The notes under the pieces: model-generated
What the model was told of the DNA's origin: nothing
Seen by the model: the letters and a program-made list of their open reading frames with translations, nothing else
Databases searched by the model: none
Shown here: piece by piece, positions 27,132 to 45,590 of the stretch
Numbering within the stretch: position 1 is the stretch's first letter
How the letters are laid out: every line of letters starts with the position of its first letter
IMG/VR virus record: IMGVR_UViG_3300047547_000347
Span: 1-46,967 of that record
Length of the DNA: 46,967 nt
From: a virus
Taxonomy: Duplodnaviria > Caudoviricetes
Direction: 5' to 3' (one strand)
Made by a program: the position numbers and the translations under genes

Positions 27132-28940
27132 ATGCCCTCCGCCACGATGAAGGCTTTGGAGCGTTCATACGCTCTTTCTAACTCTACGCAGCTCCGTTAT
27201 ATGGAGATGCAGAAGGCCGGATCGACGGGGATGATCGATCTGGATGCCGGCAGTGGTGGACTGGCTCAGCTCAGCCAGTTTCAAGATCAAGCAGCCAACC
27301 GCCAGCGGTACAGTCTGTTTCGTGGCCACATCTACTCCGCAGTCAACGCGATTGCGATGGAGGCTGCCGGTCAGCCGGTGCATGTGGGTAAGCGAAAGAA
27401 GAAGGAGAAAGAGAAGAAGCCCAAGGACAAGAAGGATTACTCGCATCGGTCGAAGATGACCATTGCACTGCGAGCCAAAGCTGCCCGCAGTGAGATGGAA
27501 GTGATTGATGATCACGATTTGCTAGACAACCTAGAGTATCCGAACCCCATCCAGACCAAATGGCAGTTCGTGTATTCCTTCGTCGCTAATTTGAGCCTGA
27601 CTGGTTGGGCTTTTATCGTTGGTGGCAAGAAGAACGAAGAAAAGGGCAAAGGTGGTGGGTACGAGTGGTACTCGGTGCCGACCACTTGGGTACACCCGGA
27701 TCATTCGCAAGGTGCGTTTTCACGCTACAAAATCTACAACCCGAAGGATGCAGCCGGCGCCCAGAAGGAGAAGTGGATCCTGGGTAACCAGGTGAAGTTT
27801 GCCTACCTCCCTAATCCGTCCGATCCGATGGCCGGCTTGGCTCCTGCTGCTGCACAAGCAGCAGCAATCAGGATTGATGAGTACATTCAGTCGTCGCAGA
27901 CGGTGTTCTTTGAGAACGGTGTATTTCCGTCTGTGATTGTGACGGTGGGACAGAACCCGCATCCTGACCTGGGTACAGCAGGCGGCAGTCGGCCGCGTCT
28001 CAGTGCACCGCAGCGGCGTCAGGTGTATGCAGCAATCAAGAAGGTTAGTAGCGGCATTGCCAACTATGGTAATCCCGCGATCGTGGACGGCTTGATCGAG
28101 AAGATCGAACGGCTGTCCGCCACGCAAAATGAGATGGGTTGGGAGAAGAGCGAGAAGGCCGTTCGCTCCCGCATCCTATCCGCCTTTGGTGTGCACCCGT
28201 TCATCCTCGGTGAGGAGATGGCTGGATCGTATGCCCAGGCATACATCGTCCAAGATCGTTTCTTCAAAAAGGTCAACACGTTCCTTGATCTGCTCAGTGT
28301 GGTGATGAGCGGGTTTATCGGGGAAGGCGAACTGATCACTGAGTCTGAAGATTTGATGGTGTGGTGGGAGGCGTGCAAGGCTACTGATCCCAGCATGGAG
28401 AAGGCGACGTGGGAGTCAGCACGCAAGAATGAAGACGTTAGCCAGAACGAGTTTCGGGCGTGGATGGGCTTGCCTCCTGATGACGATGATGAGGAGGCGA
28501 TTATCAACGCATCGGTCGTGCCGCATGTTGCAAAGATTGCAGCAGATGCGACGGCTGGTACGATTACACCCGAGCAGGCACTCGCACTGCTAACCGGACT
28601 CGGGTTGCCGGAGGATGTGGCCAAAGAGATCGCAGGCGAGGGACCCCCAGAACCACCGCCTGGCGCCGACCCGGCGTTGATGGGTGCTGTACCAGGGCAG
28701 CCCGGACAACCACCACAGGCACCAGGCAAGCCGGGTGCAGTACCAGGTAAACCCGGTGCAGCTGAACCAGTTGCGGCGGCCAAACCAGCCCAGCCGAAGA
28801 AGCCGCCCAAATCTGCTACGCCTGCAGAAGAGTTGGCCAAGGCAACTGAGTCTTTGGATATGGCCATTTTGCAGCTCGAGGAAGAACCGCACCAGGCCGT
28901 TAGGCGGTTACTGGAGCGAGCCTCTCTGGTCGATGCATGA
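27132..28940 (+). CDS. portal protein (HK97 family)
   Basis: IYSAVNAIA, PNPIQT, LSLTGWAF, FFENGVFPS, ILSAFGVHP, NEFRAWMGLPP; Pro-rich C-terminal extension. Confidence 0.92.
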   Translation: MPSATMKALERSYALSNSTQLRYMEMQKAGSTGMIDLDAGSGGLAQLSQFQDQAANRQRYSLFRGHIYSAVNAIAMEAAGQPVHVGKRKKKEKEKKPKDKKDYSHRSKMTIALRAKAARSEMEVIDDHDLLDNLEYPNPIQTKWQFVYSFVANLSLTGWAFIVGGKKNEEKGKGGGYEWYSVPTTWVHPDHSQGAFSRYKIYNPKDAAGAQKEKWILGNQVKFAYLPNPSDPMAGLAPAAAQAAAIRIDEYIQSSQTVFFENGVFPSVIVTVGQNPHPDLGTAGGSRPRLSAPQRRQVYAAIKKVSSGIANYGNPAIVDGLIEKIERLSATQNEMGWEKSEKAVRSRILSAFGVHPFILGEEMAGSYAQAYIVQDRFFKKVNTFLDLLSVVMSGFIGEGELITESEDLMVWWEACKATDPSMEKATWESARKNEDVSQNEFRAWMGLPPDDDDEEAIINASVVPHVAKIAADATAGTITPEQALALLTGLGLPEDVAKEIAGEGPPEPPPGADPALMGAVPGQPGQPPQAPGKPGAVPGKPGAAEPVAAAKPAQPKKPPKSATPAEELAKATESLDMAILQLEEEPHQAVRRLLERASLVDA

Positions 28941-31900
28941 CAACTGCTATCTTGGATAAGATCAGGCAGGTTAAAGCCGCAACTGCTGCGGTGCAGTTGA
29001 AAATGCGGTTGCAGCAGCGGGACTACCATCGAGCCGCCTTTGAGCAGCTCCACCTGAAGAAGGTTGAGAAGGTTGAGGCCGATTTGCAAGAATCGCTAGA
29101 GCCTCTCTTCGCCGACCAGATCAAGTCGGTTGAGACGAAACTACGGAAGCTCGCTGCCTCCAAAAAGAAAGCCTTCTGTCCGACAGGACCGGGAGGTGGT
29201 GTCGACCCGACTTGTGGGTCAGGAGGAGGCGGAGCAGCGAAGGTGGGTGCTGGAGAAATTCCAAAGCCGCCTAAAGTGCCTGCTGTTTTGCAGCCGAAGT
29301 ACGACGAGATTTACGCAGCAGCAAAGAAAGGCGATCGTGCTGCGGTAGAAGCTGTTAAGACAAATCCGAACGCACAGTCTCCGTATCCAAAGAAGTTGCA
29401 CCAGTACAAGACTGAGGTACTGGCTGCGATGGACACAAGCAAAGGCGACGGGAAGAAGCCCTCCGCTCCAAAAAAGGCGGACTTTACCATCGAAGAGCTG
29501 GTTGATGCCCCGGGGAGGGACGTTCAACAGGCTATGGCTAAGTTGGGGTTGAATCATGCAACTGTCGAGCAAATTGCTCGTGCGGCGGGGGCAATTTCTG
29601 GAGCTCACGTTCAGATTGCCGCCGGTGTGCTGAACGAGTGGATTCGAGTGGATGTCCAGCACGAAGATTACAAGGCAGTTCGGGTATTTGACAAAGAGGG
29701 ACTCAATAATGCGAATTTCAGCGTCACCAAACCTGGGAGTGGGCTTGGTACCCGCATCTTTTCTCAACAGGTAGCTGAAGCGTCATCGCTTGGGATCAAG
29801 AAAATCCACACCTATGCGGCTGGCGAGCCGGACATAGCCAAATTCAACGGATACTACACCTGGCCTCGATTAGGGTACGATGGCAGGATACCTCGAAGTA
29901 ATATGCAGAATGCTGGTAGGAAATTACTCAAGCAGCAATTCCCCGACGCCAAGAAAATCAGCGATTTGATGCGGACTAAGGCCGGTCGGGATTTTTGGAA
30001 GAATCACGGTGCGGGAGCTTCGTTGCAGTTTGATCTCTCGCCCAATTCACAATCAAGGCAGGTGCTTGATGCCTACGTCGCAGCCAAATTCGGATCAGGA
30101 GCAGCAGGTGGAAAATCCGCCGGAGATGACTTCAGAAGACGACGAGCTGCTGGATCAGATCTGGGACAACCTCCCGACGGCGAATACGTCTGGGGAGGAG
30201 AACCCGGCACCCTAGCCAAGAAGGTATTCGACCCATCGGAGTGGGACGAAGAACTTATTGACCGAGCACTCCCGCCGTTAGCTAAGGCGATGGCGGTTGA
30301 GATGCTGCGGGCACTGAAAGAGTTGGGTGTTGACCCACGGCGACGTAAGCCGAGAAAAGACGTCAAAGCCTCCACCGCCACTGAATGGATGGAGGACTGG
30401 AACATCGACCTAGAGGACGTTGTCTTTGATACTCCGTCTGGTGGTATCTCCATGGGGTTTGTGACGGAGTACCCGACATGGATGAAGACCGAGATCAAGA
30501 ATCGGCTGCAAGAAACCTTCGAGCAGGACTATTGGGCGAAGGTCAACGAGACGACCTTTGGTGACATCGAAGGTTACCTGAAGAAGGGATTGAAAGACGG
30601 CTGGTCCATCCAGAAGATGGCCGATGAGATCATGCCGCAGCTGATGAATCAAGGTAACTACGCTGAGTGGCGAGCCAAGACGATTGCTCGCACTGAGAGT
30701 GGTAATGCGTTGAATGGGGCTCGTGTTGCAGCAGCGGATAAGTTGATTGACGAGATCCCCGAACTGCCGATGAAGAAGGTGTGGTTGTCCGTGCTGGGTA
30801 CCACCACCAGACGGGAGCATGCTGACCTGGACGGAGTGCCCGCCAACAAAGACGGCTTATGGAAACTAGGTGGTGTCTGGGTACGTTGGCCGGGTGATAT
30901 TAATCTTCCAGTGGCGCAGAGGGCGAATTGTCAGTGCACTATCGTGGTTTCTTGGGGAGTTACCGATGAGTCGGCTGAAGAACTGATTGCTGAGTACGGT
31001 CAACGGCTGGCCGAAGATGCACCGGATGAGGAAAAAGCGTTCTGTCCTACCGGTCCCGGAGGTGGTGTAGATCCGACTTGTGGAAGCGGCGGCGGAAGTG
31101 CCGGACCGAAAGCCGGCCATGATTCACGTGGGGTGCCTATGCCGCCCAAGGTGCCGGGCAGTATCCAGCACAAGTTCGATTCCATCTACAACGCATCACT
31201 GTCGGGCAAGAAGTCCGATGTCGAGGCAGTCAAAACCAATCCAGACGCACAGTCACCGTACCCGAAGAAGTTGCACCAGTACAAACTGGATGTACTGAAG
31301 TCGATGGATACGGCAGTTCCCACTGCAACGCCTGCGGCGAAGCCGGTTGAGCAGCCGAAACCGGCTGCTGTTGAGGCTCCCGTTCCCAAGCCGATCCCGA
31401 TGCCGAAGCCGGCAGTGATGCCGAGCACGGCTACCTCAGACGGCTTCACTATCGCGGAGAAGAAGCAGCGGTTTGATGAGCACCTAGCCAAGGCGCAAGA
31501 ACTGCTTCCAGAGATTCATAAACTCGATAAAATCAGTCGAGACAAGAGTCTCACATCTGCAAAGAGGATTCAAGCTCGCCTTGATCACAAGCGAGTGAAC
31601 GCTGCTCGACAGGCTCTCCTTTATAAGGCACAGACAGAGAGGATGTCTGCAGAGGCGGCAGATCCGAAAGGGTATCGGCAGCTTCGAGAGGAATTTGAAG
31701 CGAAGCACGATGCATACACCAAAGCCGATCAACAGTTTGCGGAAAAGTTGGTGGCAGCGGGCGTGACCGCAAAAGAGGACTACCATTCGTTCAGTGCCTT
31801 GGATATAGGTTCGAAAGGATACAGTTTTGATAATGATGATCCGTATCCCCGTCAGGCAAAGAATTATCCGGGACTGACACGTGAACAGTACACCGAAGCT

Positions 31901-32839
31901 CAGGAACTATCAGCACGATACAGCGAGCTGCGAGCACAGGAAGACTTCAGCAAACCGTATTATGGAGAACCGGCAACGCCTCGGCAGTTGAATCAAACTG
32001 GCTTGAATGCACCTTCGCCCATTCTTCCTGGTAAGGTTGGTCAAGGTGGGGCGGACGACGCTACACGTGATTTTATGGGTCAGGCTGAAATACTGATCCA
32101 AGTCAAACCGAATGCGTTCGTGAAGATTGTATCTACCGAACGCATCAAGAACAAATTCGAGGGTGGTGCGACAGGTAGTGTCGGTGCTGGTAATTCCGAC
32201 TACAACAACTCTCGGAAAACGGCAGAAGCTCGGACCTTTGATATCGATCCCGAGGCCCCAGCAGCCAGTCGCCCAGTCTACGGGTACCTGCAACATCCGG
32301 ATCGGGCGGTATCAAGTGCTGCATCAATGGGCATGACTTACGGCACGGTGCAGGTGGTGTTGAAGCCGTCCGCAAAAGAACGTACGTCGTACACCGTCGG
32401 TGATTCGCTGGATGATTATTCGAAGACATTCCAGCAAGCGGGGTCTGTATCAAATCCAATCAACAACAATTTCAAACCGGAAGTCAAGTACGAGTACCTT
32501 GCAGAAAAACCGGAAAGAATAGTCAAGGCTGGACCTACGAAACAGGATTGGTTCGTCACCACTGAGGTGGGCGGACAGACGATGTCTTCAGATTCAGGTT
32601 ATGTGTTGAAGCTCTCGCCGCAGTACATCGAAGCACAAATTCATGGAGGGATTCAGTTGTCTGACATTGCAGCCTTCCGAGTTCCGCGTGGACTTGAGAT
32701 TCCCGACAAGACACGCACCAAACTTCAGAAAGCTGGCGTATCATTGATTGAAGTGCCGCCTCGGCACCCGTCTAGTTTCTACGGGATGGAAGATTGGGAT
32801 TCGGCGTTGGTGGATTCTATCAACCCGAAGAAAGACTGA
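28937..32839 (+). CDS. MuF/SPP1 gp7-like head morphogenesis protein with inserted GNAT-like domain and C-terminal DUF3626-like domain
   Basis: MuF core about 30500-30960 (IARTES, KKVW, TRREH, RWPGD, NCQC). GNAT-like GSGLGTRIF...NGYYTWPRLGY. C-terminal RPVYG, YG, TVGDS, YIEAQIHG. Confidence 0.85.
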   Translation: MTTAILDKIRQVKAATAAVQLKMRLQQRDYHRAAFEQLHLKKVEKVEADLQESLEPLFADQIKSVETKLRKLAASKKKAFCPTGPGGGVDPTCGSGGGGAAKVGAGEIPKPPKVPAVLQPKYDEIYAAAKKGDRAAVEAVKTNPNAQSPYPKKLHQYKTEVLAAMDTSKGDGKKPSAPKKADFTIEELVDAPGRDVQQAMAKLGLNHATVEQIARAAGAISGAHVQIAAGVLNEWIRVDVQHEDYKAVRVFDKEGLNNANFSVTKPGSGLGTRIFSQQVAEASSLGIKKIHTYAAGEPDIAKFNGYYTWPRLGYDGRIPRSNMQNAGRKLLKQQFPDAKKISDLMRTKAGRDFWKNHGAGASLQFDLSPNSQSRQVLDAYVAAKFGSGAAGGKSAGDDFRRRRAAGSDLGQPPDGEYVWGGEPGTLAKKVFDPSEWDEELIDRALPPLAKAMAVEMLRALKELGVDPRRRKPRKDVKASTATEWMEDWNIDLEDVVFDTPSGGISMGFVTEYPTWMKTEIKNRLQETFEQDYWAKVNETTFGDIEGYLKKGLKDGWSIQKMADEIMPQLMNQGNYAEWRAKTIARTESGNALNGARVAAADKLIDEIPELPMKKVWLSVLGTTTRREHADLDGVPANKDGLWKLGGVWVRWPGDINLPVAQRANCQCTIVVSWGVTDESAEELIAEYGQRLAEDAPDEEKAFCPTGPGGGVDPTCGSGGGSAGPKAGHDSRGVPMPPKVPGSIQHKFDSIYNASLSGKKSDVEAVKTNPDAQSPYPKKLHQYKLDVLKSMDTAVPTATPAAKPVEQPKPAAVEAPVPKPIPMPKPAVMPSTATSDGFTIAEKKQRFDEHLAKAQELLPEIHKLDKISRDKSLTSAKRIQARLDHKRVNAARQALLYKAQTERMSAEAADPKGYRQLREEFEAKHDAYTKADQQFAEKLVAAGVTAKEDYHSFSALDIGSKGYSFDNDDPYPRQAKNYPGLTREQYTEAQELSARYSELRAQEDFSKPYYGEPATPRQLNQTGLNAPSPILPGKVGQGGADDATRDFMGQAEILIQVKPNAFVKIVSTERIKNKFEGGATGSVGAGNSDYNNSRKTAEARTFDIDPEAPAASRPVYGYLQHPDRAVSSAASMGMTYGTVQVVLKPSAKERTSYTVGDSLDDYSKTFQQAGSVSNPINNNFKPEVKYEYLAEKPERIVKAGPTKQDWFVTTEVGGQTMSSDSGYVLKLSPQYIEAQIHGGIQLSDIAAFRVPRGLEIPDKTRTKLQKAGVSLIEVPPRHPSSFYGMEDWDSALVDSINPKKD
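29168..29233 (+). repeat. KAFCPTGPGGGVDPTCGSGGG motif, copy 1
   Basis: Peptide repeated at 31034 and 43948 with synonymous codon differences. Confidence 0.95.
30108..30215 (+). CDS. overprinted 35-aa acidic mini-protein nested in the MuF gene (alternative frame)
   Basis: AGGAG (30097-30101) 6 nt before GTG 30108; MENPPEMTSEDDELLDQIWDNLPTANTSGEENPAP*. Confidence 0.5.
   Translation: MENPPEMTSEDDELLDQIWDNLPTANTSGEENPAP
31034..31099 (+). repeat. KAFCPTGPGGGVDPTCGSGGG motif, copy 2
   Basis: Identical peptide to copy 1. Confidence 0.95.
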
Positions 32840-35439
32840 TGATGAGAACGCTGAGAACTCAGTACCTGCCAGAATCGCAGTGGTTGTACCTCAACAACGC
32901 TCTCGTCGTTGGCTTCGACTTTGACTCTGAACAGCCGGTGTTGCAGTACACACCAGGAGAAGAAGTCACGCTGCGAATGGCTCAGCGGGTGGCTTGGGAT
33001 CAAGGAGAAGAGGCGTTTGACAAGGATGAATTGGAACTGATTGAAAAGGCGATGAGGCCGTTTCGGCGTGATGACGAAGATACTGATGGACCAGAGAAGC
33101 CCAAAGGAGGCGCCGGCTCCGGAAACTTTTCCCACCTCGGCCGTGCCGGAAAAGTAGGTGGATCGGGACAGGGTGGAGGTCCCGTCAAAGATCAAGAAGG
33201 CAAGTTCATCCCAGGAGCTGTCGGTAAGACACTCGGTGTCGATACCAGCAGTTGGGATAAATCGTCGTCCAATGCACAGTGGGCGATGAAGAAGCTGTAC
33301 AAGATGGAACAAATGGCGGCAGCCGGCCATTGGAGCCTACTTGCAGCTCATGCTTGGAAGACCAACGCACAGTACCCAGATAAGTACAAGAAGGCGGTGC
33401 TTAAAGCCCAGGAGGGTATTCAAGCACTCAAGACCAAGGCAGTCAATGCACCACCGGCAGGCACCACGCCTGTGGCTAATCCGCCGGTACCCGCACCGGT
33501 GCCGAAGTGGAACAAGGTCGGTGGTCAGCTTGGTTCGAATCCAGGCGGTACCTACGAATTTGAAGGGAAGAAGTTCTACGTCAAGTTCCCAGCCGACCCA
33601 GATGCAGCTCGGACAGAAGTGCTGGCGTGCAAGCTGTACGAAGCAGCCGGTGCAGATGTCGTCAAGGCACACCTAGTTGAGATTGACGGGAAGACCGCAG
33701 TCGCAACGGAGTGGCTTGATACCAAGGCCATTGACTATGGTAATGCGGGCCAGAAGCAGAAAGCACAGGAGAACTTCGCAGCACACGCCTGGCTGAACAA
33801 CTGGGATGCGGTTGGTGCAGTAGGCGACACCAACAATATGCGGATGACGGCTGATGGTAAGGCCGTGATGGTGGATGCGGGTGGGTCTCTGGATCGCAAG
33901 GCGACCGGCGGCAAGAAGGTGTTTACGGATGATCCTGCGGCGTGGGACGACATGCGGAATCCGAACATCAATCCGTCTGCTGCAAAGGTGTTCGGATCGA
34001 TGACACCCGATCAGTTGACACTGTCAGCGAATAAGATTTTGTCTGTCAGTACTCAACAAGTTGACGATCTGGTGGACAAGTACGGGCCCGGAACTGTTGC
34101 TCAGAAAGCTGCACTAAAAGCGACACTCTACAATCGGCAGGAGGCGATTCTCAAGAAGACGGAAATCGTTATCCAGAAACCTGCACGAGTGTCGACTCAG
34201 CAGACAGAGGATCCCACTGAATACGTTCTGACAGGGACGACGCCGGGCGGGAGCATGATCTACACGGCTGCTGCTCCTGCTTCTAAAGTCCCGATGGCCG
34301 TACCACCGCCGCCCAAGGTCGCGAGCTACGCACAGCAGCACGGCGACAAGATGAATGCGATGTACGAAGCCGCACAGTCCGGCGACATCGCAAAGGTGAA
34401 TGCAATCAAGACGAACCCGAATGCCAGCAGCGCCTGGCCGAGCAAAGTCCACGCCTACAAGATGCAGGTATTGGCGGCGATGCAGTCAGGCGGGAAGGCA
34501 GATGGCAATCACGTCGTGCAGAAAACAACGGCTACCGGGCAAAAGGTAACGATCAAGTCCGAGTCCTTCCCAACCAAACCAGTTTTTGTTTCTAAGAATG
34601 CTGCACAGAAAGCAGCTAACGAAGCAGCAGTTGAGCAGGCGTGGAAGCACGCCGAGGCCGGTGACTTAGCATCGCTGCAAGGGATGGACTTGCCGGCGTC
34701 GCCGAAATTGAAGCAGTGGCATTCAGAGTTGGCGTCTGAGCTATCGGTTCAGCTCAATCCTCCACCGCCGACCAAGTCGCTTTCAGAAGGGTACATCGAG
34801 GCGACGTCTCATATTTCTGGCAAGTCCGGGAAAGAAGGTCTTCAAAAGATCGGGTACTGGACGGTGTTGGGTGATGTGGGCGGTGTGCCTAGCGACTTCC
34901 CTGATGGCGGTTCGAGAACCTTCCCATCCAAGGCTTGGGATGATGGTAATTCGAGATACGAAGCTCTGCCCGGACCGCAGAAGACAGAGCTTCTGAGTTA
35001 TACCGGCGGCGGTTACAGCTCGATCAATTCATCGCTGCGGACGGAAAGTAGTCCATCGGCTAGTGCGATGAATGCAGCAAAAGGCGCAATGAATGCTGCT
35101 CTTACTCTGCCGACCGGATACACGTTGACACGAGGCCATACCGGTTCTGAGAAAGAGTTCAAGAACCTGAAACCCGGGATGGTAGTCGCGGACAAAGGAG
35201 TGTTGAGTACCAAAGCGAAGGGAAAGTGGAGCGGTAACATCCAGTGGAAAATCAAATTAGGGACAGGTGTGAAAGGTGTGCCCGCCCGTCAGTTTTCACA
35301 TCATGGGCATGAGAACGAAGTCATCCTGCCGCCCAATTCGCGTATGTTGGTTACGAAAGTGATAGCGAAGAAGGGCGGTTACTTTGATGTGGAGGCTATT
35401 GCACTGCCCACTCAAGATTCACAATGCTGCCCACCGTAG
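32839..35439 (+). CDS. multidomain effector: HipA/PI3K-like kinase domain plus VIP2-type ADP-ribosyltransferase
   Basis: GQLGSNPGG, YVK, TEVLA, NWD...NN, MVDAGG kinase motifs. YTGGGY..IN..LR, LTRG, VLST, ENEVILP (R-S-E ART). Confidence 0.82.
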   Translation: MMRTLRTQYLPESQWLYLNNALVVGFDFDSEQPVLQYTPGEEVTLRMAQRVAWDQGEEAFDKDELELIEKAMRPFRRDDEDTDGPEKPKGGAGSGNFSHLGRAGKVGGSGQGGGPVKDQEGKFIPGAVGKTLGVDTSSWDKSSSNAQWAMKKLYKMEQMAAAGHWSLLAAHAWKTNAQYPDKYKKAVLKAQEGIQALKTKAVNAPPAGTTPVANPPVPAPVPKWNKVGGQLGSNPGGTYEFEGKKFYVKFPADPDAARTEVLACKLYEAAGADVVKAHLVEIDGKTAVATEWLDTKAIDYGNAGQKQKAQENFAAHAWLNNWDAVGAVGDTNNMRMTADGKAVMVDAGGSLDRKATGGKKVFTDDPAAWDDMRNPNINPSAAKVFGSMTPDQLTLSANKILSVSTQQVDDLVDKYGPGTVAQKAALKATLYNRQEAILKKTEIVIQKPARVSTQQTEDPTEYVLTGTTPGGSMIYTAAAPASKVPMAVPPPPKVASYAQQHGDKMNAMYEAAQSGDIAKVNAIKTNPNASSAWPSKVHAYKMQVLAAMQSGGKADGNHVVQKTTATGQKVTIKSESFPTKPVFVSKNAAQKAANEAAVEQAWKHAEAGDLASLQGMDLPASPKLKQWHSELASELSVQLNPPPPTKSLSEGYIEATSHISGKSGKEGLQKIGYWTVLGDVGGVPSDFPDGGSRTFPSKAWDDGNSRYEALPGPQKTELLSYTGGGYSSINSSLRTESSPSASAMNAAKGAMNAALTLPTGYTLTRGHTGSEKEFKNLKPGMVVADKGVLSTKAKGKWSGNIQWKIKLGTGVKGVPARQFSHHGHENEVILPPNSRMLVTKVIAKKGGYFDVEAIALPTQDSQCCPP

Positions 35440-35447
35440 AGTGAGAT

Positions 35448-35975
35448 ATGGCTGACGAAGAACTAGAACTTGAAGAACGCGAAGATCTAGGCGAAGAGTT
35501 TGTCTTTGCGGAAGCCCTCAGCAATGCCCAGGTGGAAAACTATCTGGGCGATCAATCCACGATCACGTCTCTGGTCCGCAAGGCGATCGATGACTTGACG
35601 GAGAAGTTCCAGCACATCGACGATAAGGACAATGCGGAGAAGATCCGCGTGATGAAAATGCTGGCGCAGCGAAATGGTGTGGTGCTGCTGGGTAAAAGCC
35701 CGCTGTTCAAACCGCTGCCAGGTTGGAATGAACCTGGTCGTATCGATGTGTTTCTCGCACACTGGATGGGGTCGGCGGAAACTGACTCTGACAAGAGAAT
35801 GGAGCACGTCTTCGTTATTCTGTTCAACAGAATTCTGGAGATTGCGGCTTATGCCGGTGTACCGGGTGTGTTACCAGAGCAGTGGCAGTTCCAGGTGGAT
35901 GCTGTCATCCACGAGTTTGTGAATCTGTGTCTTGGCATTGACTTGCCGACACAAGCCTTGATGGAAGCCCAGTAG
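35448..35975 (+). CDS. acidic hypothetical protein (possible ART/kinase partner)
   Basis: Directly follows the ART domain; very acidic N-terminus. Confidence 0.7.
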   Translation: MADEELELEEREDLGEEFVFAEALSNAQVENYLGDQSTITSLVRKAIDDLTEKFQHIDDKDNAEKIRVMKMLAQRNGVVLLGKSPLFKPLPGWNEPGRIDVFLAHWMGSAETDSDKRMEHVFVILFNRILEIAAYAGVPGVLPEQWQFQVDAVIHEFVNLCLGIDLPTQALMEAQ

Positions 35976-37160: not shown

Positions 37161-37712
37161 ATGAAGAATGTAACTTTCTATCTTGGACCGGCGACAGACA
37201 TCCTGGCAACCCGTCAGTTGACGATCACTCGTATGCCGAATGCGAGTGACGGCACGACCATGCCGTCCGCGTCGCACGATGCGGACGCTGGTGCAGGGAA
37301 CTCGTTCGTAACGGTCGCCCTCGCCAGCAATCAGATCTTCCAGGCTAAGCTGGTTGACACGCTCGACACCGGCGAAGTCGCACGCCCGCAAGTCATTCAG
37401 TTTCACACGGGGGACATGGTGTTCCCGGGTCCTGCGGTTACCGACGGGTACCTTCGTGTCTACGCTGTAGAAGACCTGAGCAGTTCCAGCTCGGTCAGCT
37501 CTAGCAGCCTCTCGTCCAGTTCTGCTTCGTCGGTTAGTTCGGCGTCCAGCGGCGAGTCGAGTCAGTCGTCCAGCAGCCTGTCGAGTTCCAGTAGCTCGGT
37601 GTCGAGTAGCTCCAGCCACTCGTCCAGTTCTGCGTCGTCGGTTAGCTCGATCAGTTCGGCGTCTTCGGCTTCCAGCAACTCTTCGAGTAGCTCGTCCAGC
37701 AGCACGTCGTAA
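37161..37712 (+). CDS. beta-domain protein with C-terminal poly-serine tail
   Basis: About 105-aa folded-looking domain plus about 75-aa Ser tract. Confidence 0.75.
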   Translation: MKNVTFYLGPATDILATRQLTITRMPNASDGTTMPSASHDADAGAGNSFVTVALASNQIFQAKLVDTLDTGEVARPQVIQFHTGDMVFPGPAVTDGYLRVYAVEDLSSSSSVSSSSLSSSSASSVSSASSGESSQSSSSLSSSSSSVSSSSSHSSSSASSVSSISSASSASSNSSSSSSSSTS

Positions 37713-38119: not shown

Positions 38120-38412
38120 TGTACATCGGATACGCACAAGTAGCCTGCACCAATGCCGTCAAAACGGTAACGGACTTCGGCACGGTTCCTGCCGAGGCTA
38201 CACACGTTGAGTTGCAGTGTGCTGCCTCTGCGGGCGGCATCAACTACACCATGGACAACGTAACGGTGCCGGGTGATCAGCGTGGAATGTATCTCGCTGC
38301 TGCCCATCCTCCGAAACTGTTCGAGATTGCTGATTTCAAGCGAATCAAGTTCTTGAGTGTGGATGCGGCATCGTCGCACTTGCACGCTCACTACATCGGA
38401 CGGCAAACGTGA
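38119..38412 (+). CDS. putative small structural protein
   Basis: TGATG/GTGA overlaps; beta-rich 97 aa. Confidence 0.6.
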   Translation: MYIGYAQVACTNAVKTVTDFGTVPAEATHVELQCAASAGGINYTMDNVTVPGDQRGMYLAAAHPPKLFEIADFKRIKFLSVDAASSHLHAHYIGRQT

Positions 38413-40322
38413 TCGATACGCACGACCAACTGGTTCGAGAGATCCGTGCTCGTCAGCAAAAGCAGACGAGTTTTAATTACGGTATCTCTACGGCAGATGC
38501 GTACGTCAAGACGATCTATGAGTGCGTAGGTTCCGATTTGTGTTACCGGTACGCCGCTAAAGGTAACACCAGTTTCGATGACGTGATGCGGAAGGCGGCC
38601 AAGACGCTGACTTACTCCAACCCCGACATGGAGGTGGAGGAGAAGGCGACGGACATTTACGCCCAGGGACTGTTGCCGGACGGCATCGAGCTGCCCAAGA
38701 ACACACTGATGGTCTTCCGCCACGTGCTGACCACGCCGCGGAAGGATCGGGACGGTGACATCCTGCGAACGCAGGGTGCGGAGATCGATCCCAAGATGCT
38801 GTTGCTGTGGCAACACGTCCATACGCTGCCGATTGGCAAATACCTCGGCACGCATTCGCAGAACTCAAAGAAGCTGGTGGTTTACAGTGCGATCGTTGAC
38901 ATGAACGATCTTGCACACGATTCAGCGGTGATGATTGAGAACGACATGGGTCGGTTCTCACATGGCTTCCGTGCCATCGCGTTCGACAACCTCAAAGAAG
39001 AGGGCGGCGGACGCACGTCGGGCAAAGGAGGCTTCGATGTCAAGCAGTTTGAAGTCATGGAAGAGTCCCTTGTGTCCGTACCGTCTAATGCCGACGCGGA
39101 CGTCGAGGAAGTTATCATGTCCCTGGTGGAAAGCAAGAAGCTGACAAGCCCTCTGATGAAGGGGGTCGGTCGGCAGATTCGGGAGAAGTCGATGGCGAAG
39201 TCAACCACCGTACCGGTGAAGCTGGACCTCCAGGTAATGCTCAACGGGAAGAACATCGATGCAGAGTATGGACTCGAAGAGAAGGGCGGGGGCAAAGAAG
39301 GATGCGGTTGCTCCGGCGCATCAGGAGAAGAAGATGGAGCTGCCGACAGCAAAGCGAAAGGTCCCGACGACCAAGAAGTGACGTGCAGTTGCGGCAAGCC
39401 GGCAAAGGAGTGCGACTGCAAGAAGGACGACAAGAAGGCTAAGAAGGCCATGTGCCCCGACTGCGAATCACCGCTCAACGAAGACGGTATCTGCGAGGAG
39501 TGCGGATACGGAATGGAAGAAGAGAAGGCTGCCGTCGACCAAGACGAAGCCGACGCGAACAACGACATGGGCGTTGTGATGTGCCCGAGCTGCGGCACTG
39601 TTGCACTGGTGGACGGCAAGTGTCCCAAGTGCGGCAGCACACCGGCCAAGGCGCCCAAGGCCTTCCAGCCCGACTGGAGCAAGGGGTACGTAAGCGGGTC
39701 AGCACTCACCGGGTCGTGGGAAAACATCCAGTCCGGCCTGTACGAGAAGGTCACCGCCTTCGCCAAGCAGAATGGAATGGACCTCAGCAATCAGCCAGGC
39801 GGCGGTTACGCCTACCTGCTTGCCACCTACGATGGTAATGCGGTCATCGCAGTGAGTCAGCCGACAGGTGAAGCTTCTTACTATCGAGCCGAATGGAAGA
39901 TGACGGACAAGGGTCCGAAGTTTGTCGGCTCGATGAAGGAAGTGCGGATCGAAGTCAGTACGGACATCATCGAGAAGTCGATCAAGTCCGGTCGCGTACT
40001 CAGCGGCAAGAACAAAGCTGCATTGCAAAACGTGCACGACAGCATCGATGAACTGGATCAGAAGGAACTGCTGCTGTCCAAGGGCGGTCGAGCTCTGTGT
40101 CGCCAGAGTAAGACGACGCTCGTTGAAATCATCAAGGCGTGTGATCCGCCGCCGTCTCAGGTGTCGGTGCTGGACATCACAGCGAAGGATGCAATGGCTG
40201 AGTTCCTCATCAAGGCGACGCCTGAAGAGATGGAACGCATGACCAAGACAATTGAAACCCTGAAGTCCATCGACAAGCGGGACAACAGGACGAAGCAGAT
40301 CCGAGCTCTTGTGAGCCGGTAA
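38409..40322 (+). CDS. HK97-type prohead (maturation) protease with zinc ribbons and C-terminal extension
   Basis: DRDGDIL, LLWQH..LPIGK, FSHGF, EESLVSVPSN; CxxC pairs; KSGRVLSGKN. Confidence 0.9.
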   Translation: MIDTHDQLVREIRARQQKQTSFNYGISTADAYVKTIYECVGSDLCYRYAAKGNTSFDDVMRKAAKTLTYSNPDMEVEEKATDIYAQGLLPDGIELPKNTLMVFRHVLTTPRKDRDGDILRTQGAEIDPKMLLLWQHVHTLPIGKYLGTHSQNSKKLVVYSAIVDMNDLAHDSAVMIENDMGRFSHGFRAIAFDNLKEEGGGRTSGKGGFDVKQFEVMEESLVSVPSNADADVEEVIMSLVESKKLTSPLMKGVGRQIREKSMAKSTTVPVKLDLQVMLNGKNIDAEYGLEEKGGGKEGCGCSGASGEEDGAADSKAKGPDDQEVTCSCGKPAKECDCKKDDKKAKKAMCPDCESPLNEDGICEECGYGMEEEKAAVDQDEADANNDMGVVMCPSCGTVALVDGKCPKCGSTPAKAPKAFQPDWSKGYVSGSALTGSWENIQSGLYEKVTAFAKQNGMDLSNQPGGGYAYLLATYDGNAVIAVSQPTGEASYYRAEWKMTDKGPKFVGSMKEVRIEVSTDIIEKSIKSGRVLSGKNKAALQNVHDSIDELDQKELLLSKGGRALCRQSKTTLVEIIKACDPPPSQVSVLDITAKDAMAEFLIKATPEEMERMTKTIETLKSIDKRDNRTKQIRALVSR

Positions 40323-40329
40323 CCAACGC

Positions 40330-40914
40330 ATGTCGATCATCTACTGTGCGGTCAATCGGGTAAACGGAAAGCGATACATCGGGAAAACCCGTAATGCGCT
40401 TTCTGCAAGACGTCGAACGCACGAGTTGTGTTCGTTAAAGGAAGCGGGTGTACGTTTTTGCTTCCATCGGGCTTTAAGAAAGTACGGACATGCGGCTTTT
40501 GATTGGGAAGTGCTCTTTGAGGGAGTTGTTAGTCGACAGGTCTTGAGTAAACTTGAAATAGACTTTATTCAAGATCTGCAGACGCAGGCGCCGGATGGAT
40601 ACAACATGACGCCGGGCGGCGAAGGCGGTAATCATGGAATTGAGCACACCCGAAAAATGCAGGCGAAAGCTGTTCTAGCTAATACCGGCAGTAAGAGGTC
40701 ACATACAATTCGGCAGAAATGTCGAGAGGCTCAGATAAAAAGATTTCAATCCCAAGAACAAAGACAAGCGGTCGGGGCTTCCCGTAAAGGTAGGACTTGG
40801 GAAGAGATCTACGGAACCGAAAGGGCCCAGCAAAAGCGGCGGGAATATAGCTTGCGAATGCTGGGAAACGGGAGAGGGAACGGTAGAGGAGTAGCTGTCA
40901 ACGGTGGTCGTTGA
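40330..40914 (+). CDS. GIY-YIG homing endonuclease
   Basis: IIY...NGKRYIGKT, ALRKYG..F.W, GYNMTPGG; paralog of 6206..6898. Confidence 0.88.
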   Translation: MSIIYCAVNRVNGKRYIGKTRNALSARRRTHELCSLKEAGVRFCFHRALRKYGHAAFDWEVLFEGVVSRQVLSKLEIDFIQDLQTQAPDGYNMTPGGEGGNHGIEHTRKMQAKAVLANTGSKRSHTIRQKCREAQIKRFQSQEQRQAVGASRKGRTWEEIYGTERAQQKRREYSLRMLGNGRGNGRGVAVNGGR

Positions 40915-40955
40915 CGCTATCCAGACTGTAGTGAGTTGACGAAAGGATAGCACCT

Positions 40956-42593
40956 ATGCGACTCACCAATAAGATGCGAAAGTGGCTCATCGACGAGTGC
41001 AACGTCAAGGCGACGTCCACTGACGATGAGTTCAAGAAGGCCGCCGGCACGGCGTTGGCGGCTGGCACCTTGACCGCGGAAAAGCTCACTGAGTTGTCCA
41101 CGACCAAGGAAGACGAAGAGGCCGACGACGTGGTCAGCCTGTTCAAGGGCATCTCGGACACCTTCAAGGACATCAGCAAGTCGCTGAAGACCGACGAGAA
41201 GTCTGGTGAAGCCGAAACCAAGGACGGCGAAGAGCCGGACGGCGAAAAGTCTGCAAAGACGACTAAGCCGACCGGCGAGAAGGCCAAGCCTTCGATGCTA
41301 GAGAAGCTCTTCACCCGGTCCGCCGGACCTGTCGATGAGGACGTCGATGGCGAAGAGAAGTCCTTCAGCGTTCGCATCAAGGAAGTTGCGGAGCAGTACA
41401 CCGACACCAAGTCGGCCCTGACGTTCCCCGAGTATACGGATAAGGGCAAGGCCCATCCGTTGGCCGGCAAGCCGGTCAAGGACTACTCGGAAGGTGCGTC
41501 GCGGACGATCCACGAGGCGTCGGACCTGGACAAGGCGGTTGCCGGAGCGTACGGCAAGTTCCTTGTGCAGACTGCTCGGCTCAAGAGCCGGTCGCTGGCG
41601 TTTGCTCAGCTTCCCCAGCACGACAGGGAACTGCTCTGCCATGCGATGGAGAAGATGACGTGGGGTGGATCTTCGGATGGCGGCGATTACGCCGACATCA
41701 AAAACCGCCGCCTGACGCCGGCAGAGCAGAAGGCCCTGATCGACGACAGCACTTCGGGCGGCTTGGAAGCTGCTCCGATTGTTTTCGACGACATGGTAAT
41801 CCAGACCCCGCTACTGAACGGCGAACTCTACCCACTGGTGACTCAGGTTCCTCTGGACCGCGGTCGTCGGGTGGAAGGTGTGTCGGTCGGCAACGTGACT
41901 GGAAGCTGGGGCGGTGTCGATGACACGGCTATCTCGCTGTTTAACACGGCGAGCTACGTCGCAGCCTTCGATACGACCATCTTCCGCTGGGAAGGTGCGA
42001 TCCGGCTCGGACTGGACTTCCTGTCCGACACGCCGATTGACTTCGGCCCGATCATCACCGCTCAGTACGGTGAACGGCTGCTTGAGGACCTGGACGATGT
42101 CATTGCCGTCGGCAATGGCACGACCCAGCCCGAAGGCATCATGACCAAGAGCGGTACCACCAGCGTCAGCTTCGGTGGGGCCACGTCCATCGGCAACTAC
42201 GAATCGCTGCGGTTCGGCGTGCCGAAGAAGGAGCACAAGGCGAACGTCAAGTCGTCCGCCGTGTTCGTCGGGACGGAAACCAGTTACCAGCGGGTGCGTG
42301 CTATTCCGGTCGGAGCGAGCGATGCTCGTCGCCTGGGCGGAATGGATTACGACTCGTACTCCTGGATGCAGCGGCCGTATAAGATCAACGAGTCCTTGAC
42401 GAACTCGCAGATCTTCTACGCCATCCTTGCACGGTACCGGATGTACCGTCGGCGTGGACTGTCCATGCGGCAGTCGACCGAGGGTGACACGCTGATCCGC
42501 AACAACGAGTTGCTGATGGTCGCGATGGCCCGATACGGCGGTCAGCTCGAGCGTGGTGCTTGTGCTGCTGTCACGTCGACCGCACCGGCCTAA
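40956..42593 (+). CDS. major capsid protein (HK97 fold) with long N-terminal scaffold/delta region
   Basis: KALIDDSTSGG..P, LDD..AVGNGTTQPEGI, RYGG; downstream of protease and followed by terminator. Confidence 0.92.
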   Translation: MRLTNKMRKWLIDECNVKATSTDDEFKKAAGTALAAGTLTAEKLTELSTTKEDEEADDVVSLFKGISDTFKDISKSLKTDEKSGEAETKDGEEPDGEKSAKTTKPTGEKAKPSMLEKLFTRSAGPVDEDVDGEEKSFSVRIKEVAEQYTDTKSALTFPEYTDKGKAHPLAGKPVKDYSEGASRTIHEASDLDKAVAGAYGKFLVQTARLKSRSLAFAQLPQHDRELLCHAMEKMTWGGSSDGGDYADIKNRRLTPAEQKALIDDSTSGGLEAAPIVFDDMVIQTPLLNGELYPLVTQVPLDRGRRVEGVSVGNVTGSWGGVDDTAISLFNTASYVAAFDTTIFRWEGAIRLGLDFLSDTPIDFGPIITAQYGERLLEDLDDVIAVGNGTTQPEGIMTKSGTTSVSFGGATSIGNYESLRFGVPKKEHKANVKSSAVFVGTETSYQRVRAIPVGASDARRLGGMDYDSYSWMQRPYKINESLTNSQIFYAILARYRMYRRRGLSMRQSTEGDTLIRNNELLMVAMARYGGQLERGACAAVTSTAPA

Positions 42594-43360: not shown

Positions 43361-43879
43361 GTGGCGAAGAAGCCAAGTGACGGACTTAGTCGCGAAGAGC
43401 GACGTATCAGATCGATTGAAGCTGCCCGCCAACGACGTGTTGACCGGGCAGCGACAATTGACATACAGACGCAATGGTTCATCAAGGAGGTGTGTGGTAC
43501 GGTTAGCCTGAGCCTCAAGAAGAGGGTCAGGATTGCGACTGAGCTTGTCAAGAATAAGATCATTCGCAACATCAGCCGACCGGTTACCAAGACAGTCAAG
43601 ACCCATTTGGAGAATGGAAAGCCGGTACAGCGTACAGTCGTGTCTGATCGGTCTAAGAAGGGAGAGTTCCCCAAGGCCGATACAACGCAGTTGATGAAGA
43701 CAATTTTCAGTGCGTATGAAGAGCCGGGGGAAGGGAATTTTGCGGGGTTTGTGGGAACCCCGCTGGACTATGGAGTGATGCTGGAAACCTTGCCGCAGCT
43801 CGATCGAAGTTTCCTTGTGCGAACACTGAATGAAGAACGCGACAACGTGATGGCGATTTTGTCGGGACCGATCAAATGA
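43361..43879 (+). CDS. HK97 gp10-like neck/tail completion protein
   Basis: GEFPKADT..L, VGTPLDYG..LE, RSFL; position in neck region. Confidence 0.7.
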   Translation: MAKKPSDGLSREERRIRSIEAARQRRVDRAATIDIQTQWFIKEVCGTVSLSLKKRVRIATELVKNKIIRNISRPVTKTVKTHLENGKPVQRTVVSDRSKKGEFPKADTTQLMKTIFSAYEEPGEGNFAGFVGTPLDYGVMLETLPQLDRSFLVRTLNEERDNVMAILSGPIK

Positions 43880-44355
43880 AAGTTGACAAAGTCAAATTCG
43901 CCGATTCGATGGCCAAGGCTGCTACCAGTTTCGCCGCCCTTGCCGAGAAGGCGTTCTGCCCGACTGGACCAGGTGGCGGTGTGAACCCGACGTGCGGATC
44001 AGGAGGCGGATCAGGAGGCGGATCAGGCCTCTCTCCAGAGGCTGCCAAAGAGCGGAAGGCATTGACGAAGATGATGCCTTCCGGATCGAAGGCCACAGCC
44101 GACGGCGTTCGATGGGAAAAGAGAGGCGGTCAGGCCGGAAAGAAGATCTTGTCTAAGTTGGTAGAGAAAGCCACTGCTGCTGGGTTTGTTCAGCAGACAC
44201 ACGAATCACACTCGTCGCAGGCTGGTCCGGTTGGTAGTGGCCAGGTTTACAAACATCCAAATGGACACACTCTTCGGACTGATAAGAGTTTTGGTGCGAC
44301 GGCTGACAGCAACTGGTACTCGGCGACATTGACCTTCGGATCAGGACCTGCGTGA
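43876..44355 (+). CDS. small protein carrying the KAFCPTG motif; candidate head-packaged protein
   Basis: 24-aa leader, motif, Gly-Ser linker, about 105-aa unknown domain; ATGA/GTGA overlaps. Confidence 0.75.
   Translation: MKVDKVKFADSMAKAATSFAALAEKAFCPTGPGGGVNPTCGSGGGSGGGSGLSPEAAKERKALTKMMPSGSKATADGVRWEKRGGQAGKKILSKLVEKATAAGFVQQTHESHSSQAGPVGSGQVYKHPNGHTLRTDKSFGATADSNWYSATLTFGSGPA
43948..44013 (+). repeat. KAFCPTGPGGGVNPTCGSGGG motif, copy 3
   Basis: One substitution (D to N) relative to copies 1 and 2. Confidence 0.95.
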
Positions 44356-44858: not shown

Positions 44859-45590
44859 ATGACTCGTTCACTCCAGTCGCCTAAGCTCGTCATGCAGCTC
44901 ACCGCAGCGGTGAAGAATGTAATGACGACGGATACCGGTCGTTCCGCATCGGGCAGTGTCAATCATGATGTCACTCGCACGATGGCAGATGGTGTGAGTG
45001 ATCTGCAAGCCAGCCGGGCGTGGGAGTACAAGGCGACGATCCTCAGCGGGGCCGATCACGTGATCGACCTGTACGACCTGGGCGGTATCGACATCGGTGC
45101 TGGTGCAGGTGCTGACATTGTCGGTCAGCCGATGACGCTGGAAGAGATTGCAGTTATTCTTATTGAGAATCAGAACGCGATCACCGACGCTGGTCAGCTT
45201 GAAATCCAACCGGACGGAACTGCCGGCTGGACACCCATTGGGATCCACACCGTCGCAACGGGTGGGGCTTTACGCGGTCAAGGGGCATTGGCCAAAGTCC
45301 AGGTTGCGGAAGCTGGTTTCAACGTGACGGATGCCAGCAGTCACCGCATCAAACTGACAGCCAATGGTGGTGCTGTTGCTTTCAAACTCTCGATCCTTGC
45401 TCGTCACGACGACGACGATTCGAGTTCCAGCAGCAGCAGCAGTTCGTCGTCCAGTAGTTCTTCCAGCAGTAGCAGCGTCTCTTCGTCTAGTGTTTCCAGC
45501 AGCTCGAGTGTATCGTCCTCGAGTGCTTCCAGTCTCAGTAGCAGCAGTTCAAACAGTTCGTCCAGCTCTTCCAGCTCTTCCACTTCGTGA
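44859..45590 (+). CDS. putative structural protein with C-terminal poly-serine tail
   Basis: About 185-aa beta-rich domain, DDDD, then about 55-aa Ser tract. Confidence 0.75.
   Translation: MTRSLQSPKLVMQLTAAVKNVMTTDTGRSASGSVNHDVTRTMADGVSDLQASRAWEYKATILSGADHVIDLYDLGGIDIGAGAGADIVGQPMTLEEIAVILIENQNAITDAGQLEIQPDGTAGWTPIGIHTVATGGALRGQGALAKVQVAEAGFNVTDASSHRIKLTANGGAVAFKLSILARHDDDDSSSSSSSSSSSSSSSSSSSVSSSSVSSSSSVSSSSASSLSSSSSNSSSSSSSSSTS

Follow-up and report, generated by a model that had tools for sequence, protein, structure and literature searches.

Small genes that lie fully inside another gene, in a shifted frame and with a start signal of their own, are known from Rz/Rz1 of phage lambda and D/E of phiX174, and both pairs presumably began when a new frame was overprinted on an older gene. 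In the type II GNAT toxin-antitoxin systems AtaRT, TacAT and ItaRT, the antitoxins are DNA-binding ribbon-helix-helix proteins encoded upstream. Here we describe a locus in a 46,967-nt stretch of tailed-phage DNA (IMG/VR record IMGVR_UViG_3300047547_000347, hereafter the window; present in freshwater metagenome runs according to a database look-up), in which a GNAT-fold domain within a MuF head protein is accompanied by a small ORF nested out of frame. With the GNAT systems named above the window shares the fold and the small partner, as set out in the accessible parts of PMC7180214, and TacT2, TacT3 and AtaT are among its tied structural matches (Z 6.7-7.2). The partner in the window, however, lies downstream, measures 35-48 aa, consists of one acidic helix and is without a family match, and the GNAT sits within a head protein, the MuF N-terminus lying upstream of it. 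Judged against the general anatomy of those antitoxins, the pair is not a member of AtaRT/TacAT. Unlike the small genes of Rz/Rz1 and D/E, that of the window also occurs free-standing and fused, and was seemingly engulfed as a component of a mobile cassette.

Closer in genomic setting are the MuF polymorphic toxins, for which the accessible text of Jamet et al. 2017 (PMC5576092) reports a small ORF following the toxin gene in 89.4% of 191 cases. As described there, and as in the window, a tailed phage has in its head module a MuF gene with an added enzyme domain, directly behind which comes a very small ORF. In those systems, however, the toxin forms the C-terminus and the small ORF stands downstream as a gene of its own, whereas in the window the enzyme domain precedes the MuF core and the small ORF is nested in another frame. 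By its proposed working the pair resembles a MuF toxin-immunity system. The window has the MuF domain, the location in the head module and the small ORF after the enzyme domain, and lacks the C-terminal toxin extension, with the GNAT ending at aa 384 and MuF spanning aa 544-669. The word acetyltransferase is absent from the main text of PMC5576092. Polyvalent proteins, as far as the accessible parts of Iyer et al. 2017 (PMC5512222) describe them, likewise are virion-associated and built of several domains, GNAT, ART and MuF among them, and their delivery upon infection has been proposed. Like these, the window's protein joins several effector-type domains in one virion-associated polypeptide of 1300 aa, combining the GNAT fold, MuF and a DUF3626-like region (DUF3626 below cut-off). 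The same parts of that paper describe two GNAT families, RimI-like and from other phyla, and mention no peptide partner or nested gene; RimI is among the tied fold matches of the window's GNAT, the polyvalent GNAT families being compared by description only. No nested partner in a MuF gene was found in the part of the literature that the searches covered.

The host ORF of the nested gene (28937..32839, plus strand) encodes a MuF (phage head morphogenesis) polyprotein and follows a portal gene (27132-28940). Its assignment is based on its portal, protease and capsid neighbours and on PF04233, which matches aa 544-669 (E 4.7e-8, 34.2 bits versus a cut-off of 29.6); this MuF core (30566..30943, plus strand) is matched by PHROG head morphogenesis families as well. 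Downstream of the MuF gene lie an ADP-ribosyltransferase polyprotein, a weak match to a prohead protease, and the capsid gene. The GNAT-fold domain (NGYYTWPRLGY family) occupies 29540..30088 on the plus strand and is a predicted acetyltransferase effector. The preliminary description of this DNA had called it GNAT-like from the sequence, which is now backed by an AlphaFold model of residues ~200-384 (pLDDT 95.7), by Foldseek and VIA matches, and by PF00583 in homologues. The top structural matches are nearly all GNAT acetyltransferases, although the scores are only moderate: the best Foldseek E is 1.5e-3, and the best VIA match has Z 8.4 with an rmsd of 2.8 over 98 residues. PF00583 is detected in 10 of 72 homologues, but the copy in the window gives no match. 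A GNAT fold for this region is supported. Of the acetyl-CoA loop R/Q-x-x-G-x-A/G, the G-x-G part is nearly invariant in the 72 homologues, and the window reads KPGSGLG, without the R/Q. Searches for the family gave 2,712 matches at E 0.001 or better among cluster representatives, and genome matches were mostly Planctomycete bins; viral contigs scanned with single proteins yielded no match for the GNAT and none for the MuF core.

What had first drawn attention to this region was a possible mini-gene hidden in the MuF gene. Its elements are all present, with AGGAG at 30097-30101, 6 nt, GTG at 30108, 35 codons and TAG at 30213-30215, in a frame that is +1 relative to the 1300-aa ORF. The +1 frame is in fact open from 30009, and a start at GTG 30108 is less well supported than one at ATG 30069, which gives an ORF of 48 aa with a net charge of -12 (30069..30215, plus strand). 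Within the last GNAT helix, the GAT that encodes the Asp of L-D-A-Y gives rise to this ATG, and the Asp codon is GAT in seven of seven nested loci with Asp at the site, versus one of 20 fused, partnerless or other-frame loci (Fisher p 9e-6, ignoring kinship). A Shine-Dalgarno-like stretch 5' of it, inside the same helix (30055..30064, plus strand), yields an anti-SD duplex of -11.1 kcal/mol, compared to -6.6 kcal/mol for the AGGAG and GTG (30097..30110, plus strand); among 294 ATG/GTG triplets in the region, 8.5% reach -9. SD-like pairing is stronger at the start of nested loci (p 0.003), the signal being strong in five of ten and weak in the remaining five. Furthermore, the nested locus L196 keeps QQVENPPE without a GTG there, and its upstream site is a TTG with a strong SD. 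Taken together, the conserved ATG, the SD energies and the pattern in L196 make the 48-aa form the likely product, while GTG 30108 may be a second start and is probably an internal Val. The codon preceding the ATG differs among nested loci (CTT, TTG, TGG, CTC, TTA), which fits initiation rather than slippage. No sigma-70-like promoter was found in 29300-30500, and no unusual RNA structure at either ATG 30069 or GTG 30108.

The conserved peptide core, ENPPEMTSEDDELLDQIWDNL, is encoded in the +1 frame at 30111..30173 (plus strand), as indicated by its score against a position matrix, its conserved Trp and its substitutions. Over the bases of the nested ORF the main frame reads GDDFRRRRAAGSDLG, previously described as off-frame filler. 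This holds over the core, where the main frame is Gly/Arg filler; over the tail (30176..30215, plus strand) the main frame is MuF scaffold again (DGEYVWGGEPGTL), as the sequences of the relatives P0015 and P0008 show, and it is the nested ORF that is filler. MuF-like sequence had been thought to resume at the stop of the mini-ORF. Comparison with the empty site in P0015 places this at ~30176, 13 codons before the stop, and by the same comparison the overlap comprises three zones, which we read as GNAT helix over peptide leader, peptide core under filler, and MuF scaffold over peptide tail. Translation of the MuF core from 28937 must read through the nested gene.

An assembly artefact is ruled out by two metagenome contigs that match the window with zero differences (29709-30262 from run X1 and 30085-30356 from run X2; one sample, possibly the window's source), and by the hidden signature of the peptide in 27 other proteins. 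We also observed that contigs of run X1 end at 30235-30262, and that nearby coverage by a run from another study is confined to 30235-30390, as though the MuF scaffold, but not the insert, were common to relatives.

To place the nested peptide, 195 loci were fetched with a GNAT alignment, giving 226 profile matches, from which 187 distinct ends were kept that reach the domain C-terminus and have downstream DNA. A position matrix was trained on 42 non-nested homologous peptides, with the window and nested cases excluded. The window's peptide scores 36.4 bits, whereas the runner-up across all six frames of the window reaches 8.9 and no reverse-strand control in the 187 regions exceeds -3.2. By these scores it belongs to a previously unannotated family, LT/SxEDExxLDxxW, in which the Trp of the core is conserved in at least 90% of 72 homologues. 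A peptide lies within 330 nt of 81 GNAT ends (the 42 training peptides included) and 106 ends are without one. The small ExxLDxIW-type gene that was to be sought behind free-standing GNAT homologues is there, as 47 of the 187 ends carry the peptide as a separate gene; the other layouts are in-frame tails (26, of which 15 terminal and 11 internal), nested +1 ORFs (seven, including the window) and one nested +2 ORF. Two further nested variants, L065 and L087, were found by eye. The second of these (L087:3998) shares the overlapping ATG and has a strong SD, but its nested +1 ORF encodes a divergent acidic peptide that lacks the Trp. The separate-gene loci L006 and L062 also share the overlapping ATG, which suggests a route to nesting through loss of the GNAT stop.

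Starting from the peptide instead, a DNA pattern for it matched viral sequences 18 times. Eleven matches have a GNAT end at most 90 nt upstream, and include the new nested loci L196 and L210; of the seven without GNAT, six look like chance and one, L203, is an apparent true homologue without a detected GNAT. A search of 50,697 annotated phage records gave no match, the peptide has no PHROG family, an Atlas search gave only a lead of 0.75, and a search with the free-standing peptide of P0182 returned one relative. While the 48-aa and 35-aa products are absent as exact sequences from a collection of 15 billion proteins, a free-standing homologue is present. The short stand-alone GNAT homologues, mostly from Planctomycete bins, have the peptide in eight of 68 loci, versus 48 of 70 long polyprotein loci (leaving out 29 loci cut by contig ends). 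The domain can therefore exist without this partner, and toxicity is not assured. Stand-alone GNATs without the acidic peptide (L161, L162, L164, L176, L179, L193 and other Planctomycete loci) often have another conserved small gene behind them, with an AKTTGNAKKVA motif.

The preliminary description further proposed that a two-gene unit had been captured by the MuF gene, and this gains support from an empty site in P0015 and from the presence of the cassette at other MuF sites. In the window, the inserted cassette (29168..30175, plus strand; boundaries approximate) consists of a Gly-rich FCPTG linker, a short helical module, the GNAT-fold domain and the filler. It splits the MuF N-terminal scaffold, such that the flanking helices are 351 aa apart, as opposed to 16 aa in P0015, where YVWGGEASTLAKKVFDPSEW stands directly after the first MuF helix, between and after the two helices. 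Nested cassettes follow the second MuF helix in P0015, P0019 and P0131, and the MuF core in P0026. Since the cassette is found at differing MuF sites, the GNAT domain and the hidden peptide move together. A MuF core is detectable downstream in 16 of 28 nested proteins.

So what would such a hidden peptide do? The locus is best read as an effector-immunity cassette of the MuF type in which the immunity gene has come to be nested, its start signal lying inside the last helix of the enzyme. We consider it rather probable that the nested peptide, likely made from its own start at ATG 30069, binds and restrains the GNAT as an immunity partner. The cassette would have originated as an effector gene with a small partner gene. 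In the course of its insertion ahead of the MuF core, it would have lost the GNAT stop, leaving the MuF frame to read through the partner out of frame, and this read-through would let the effector sit inside a virion polyprotein while a free partner is kept. Made from the same late mRNA, the peptide would keep the enzyme off in the producing cell, and would likely not accompany the MuF-GNAT protein into the virion and on to the next host. A model of the in-frame fusion L070 has a disordered linker and a confidently placed peptide (pLDDT 94-98, pTM 0.87; uncontrolled, contacts not seen), and looks as if the peptide docks on the GNAT. A fold search with the L070 fusion model returned GNATs, which barely tests the peptide. 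Simple charge neutralisation is argued against by the partnered GNAT domains not being more basic, with a median charge of 0 versus +9 for unpartnered ones.

The most serious competitor, to which we give a clearly smaller chance, accepts that the peptide is made and binds the GNAT, and takes it for a chaperone, activator, substrate decoy or head-loading adaptor of a non-toxic enzyme, for instance one that acetylates a host defence protein. Such a role would suit the stand-alone chromosomal homologues described above, which mostly do without the peptide, as well as the frequency of in-frame fusions (26/187), which indicates that a permanently tethered peptide is tolerated. Moreover, AcrVA5, an acetyltransferase that acts as an anti-CRISPR, belongs to the group of tied structural matches (Z 7.7, rmsd 2.6, 90 aligned). 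However, a small acidic gene behind a MuF-locus effector is the usual immunity layout according to the accessible text of PMC5576092, and one peptide often accompanies several GNAT copies, as 36 of 68 multi-domain proteins contain a bare GNAT copy together with one that is partnered or terminal, an arrangement that fits a diffusible inhibitor. In 16 of 68 multi-GNAT proteins no partner was found in the protein, a point against the immunity reading.

Whichever role it has, the nested gene is very probably real and translated. Over 19 codons in eight nested loci (28 pairs; L010 dropped as a near-copy of L003), synonymous changes make up 114 of 375 changed codons in the +1 frame versus 32 of 370 in the main frame, and the replacements have a mean BLOSUM score of +0.25 versus -0.97, although these figures are overstated because the nested loci were chosen by motif and the pairs share ancestry. 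The comparison of both frames, which had been suggested from the outset, hence favours +1, and points to purifying selection on the nested frame. Together with the conserved initiation signal, this gives the locus two features of dual-coding genes, the SD remaining weak in half of the cases. It is improbable that the +1 frame is instead the slowly decaying remains of a partner gene that read-through has engulfed and that is no longer expressed. Nesting by chance is easy, as the matching frame is already open in 24 of 67 non-nested peptide genes, so that some cases may be young, and in an unrooted, weakly resolved GNAT tree (15/153 branches starred) the nested state is scattered, with 18 changes. 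Nevertheless, nested relatives retain motif, open frame and start codon even though their GNATs share just 33-46% identity with that of the window, and the window's sister P0008 (support 99) is still nested across a path of 0.75 changes per site.

Nesting extends beyond the loci with DNA. The main-frame sequence of proteins was scored for its fit to a +1 peptide hidden beneath it. Of 159 read-through ends, 28 exceeded the maximum of 250 null windows, one of them being the window's own protein and some being near-copies of each other or of the loci. Among 42 proteins with a single internal GNAT, 35 keep a partner (20 nested +1, two nested +2, 13 in-frame), and three of the seven scored as bare show an in-frame peptide by eye. 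Both sets are biased to the window's close relatives. The mini-gene had been called overprinted. For the core the direction is probably the opposite; the peptide gene also exists free-standing, and the MuF filler therefore likely overprints the peptide core, the tree being unrooted and weakly resolved.

Least probable of all is a +1 ribosomal frameshift adding the peptide as a C-terminal tail of the GNAT, so that a short product that restrains itself would be made alongside the full-length MuF protein. In-frame tails do exist, the SD-like stretch adjoins CTT-GAT in the window, and in three loci the peptide is found in the -1 frame together with an in-frame N-AAA-AAG run. The invariant feature of nested loci, however, is the ATG and not a slippery codon, and a shift at CTT-GAT would remove the conserved Tyr of the last GNAT helix. 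In these three loci (L016, L048 and L057, with GNAT ends at L016:3962, L048:4064 and L057:3941) a start codon is absent within 75 nt and the run lies just 3' of the GNAT end, and a programmed -1 frameshift appending the peptide is possible there. L052, L091 and L174 are also without a near start, and have no N-AAA-AAG run.

It is tempting to consider a wider scheme, which we put forward tentatively and would sooner doubt than assume: virion polyproteins would stack internal effectors by swallowing effector-immunity cassettes while keeping the immunity genes nested, and the members of one peptide family would switch among four states, standing free, fused in frame, nested in +1 or appended by a -1 frameshift. 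Annotation would then overlook a whole layer of immunity genes concealed in polyvalent proteins. The partner gene described here, conserved in a shifted frame, escapes ordinary gene calling. C-terminal MuF effectors leave room for an immunity gene behind them; effectors buried in polyvalent head proteins do not, and a nested out-of-frame partner is a concrete candidate answer to how these are restrained. Furthermore, the core of ~20 residues is a minimal candidate inhibitor of an uncharacterised phage GNAT family, and the gene layouts form a natural series for studying the origin of overlapping genes.

Several other features of the head module deserve mention. A module of FCPTGPGGGVDPTCG linker and a short helical unit ending in KLHQYK occurs twice in the MuF protein (29168-29440 and 31034-31310); a unit related to the KLHQYK module recurs in the ORF at 32794-35439, and the FCPTGPGGGVDPTCG linker in that at 43876-44355. 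Lys-Ala/Lys-Ser motifs stand at module boundaries of the MuF protein (28937-32839; aa 78, 393, 477 and 700) and, in the region 38409-42593, at aa 259 of the capsid protein. Prohead cleavage in HK97 occurs after Lys, and by analogy these motifs are possible candidate sites for the prohead protease. Of the 28 nested proteins, 14 have KS where the cassette ends, which is ambiguous, as Asn-Pro in the +1 frame also yields KS. The first 70-85 residues of the ADP-ribosyltransferase polyprotein (32842-33100) resemble a small acidic partner of the preceding DUF3626-like domain; this putative partner, without a PHROG match, appears fused to the next gene. Within the same ORF (32794-35439), the stretch 33500-34150 bears, by eye, a resemblance to a HipA/PI3K-like kinase, where Pfam gave only ADP-ribosyltransferase. 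Directly after the ADP-ribosyltransferase lies an acidic 175-aa ORF (35448-35975) without a Pfam or PHROG match, a candidate immunity gene. A GIY-YIG-like gene (weak match; 40330-40914) lies between the protease and capsid genes, and the ORFs at 37161-37712 and 44859-45590 carry long poly-Ser tails.
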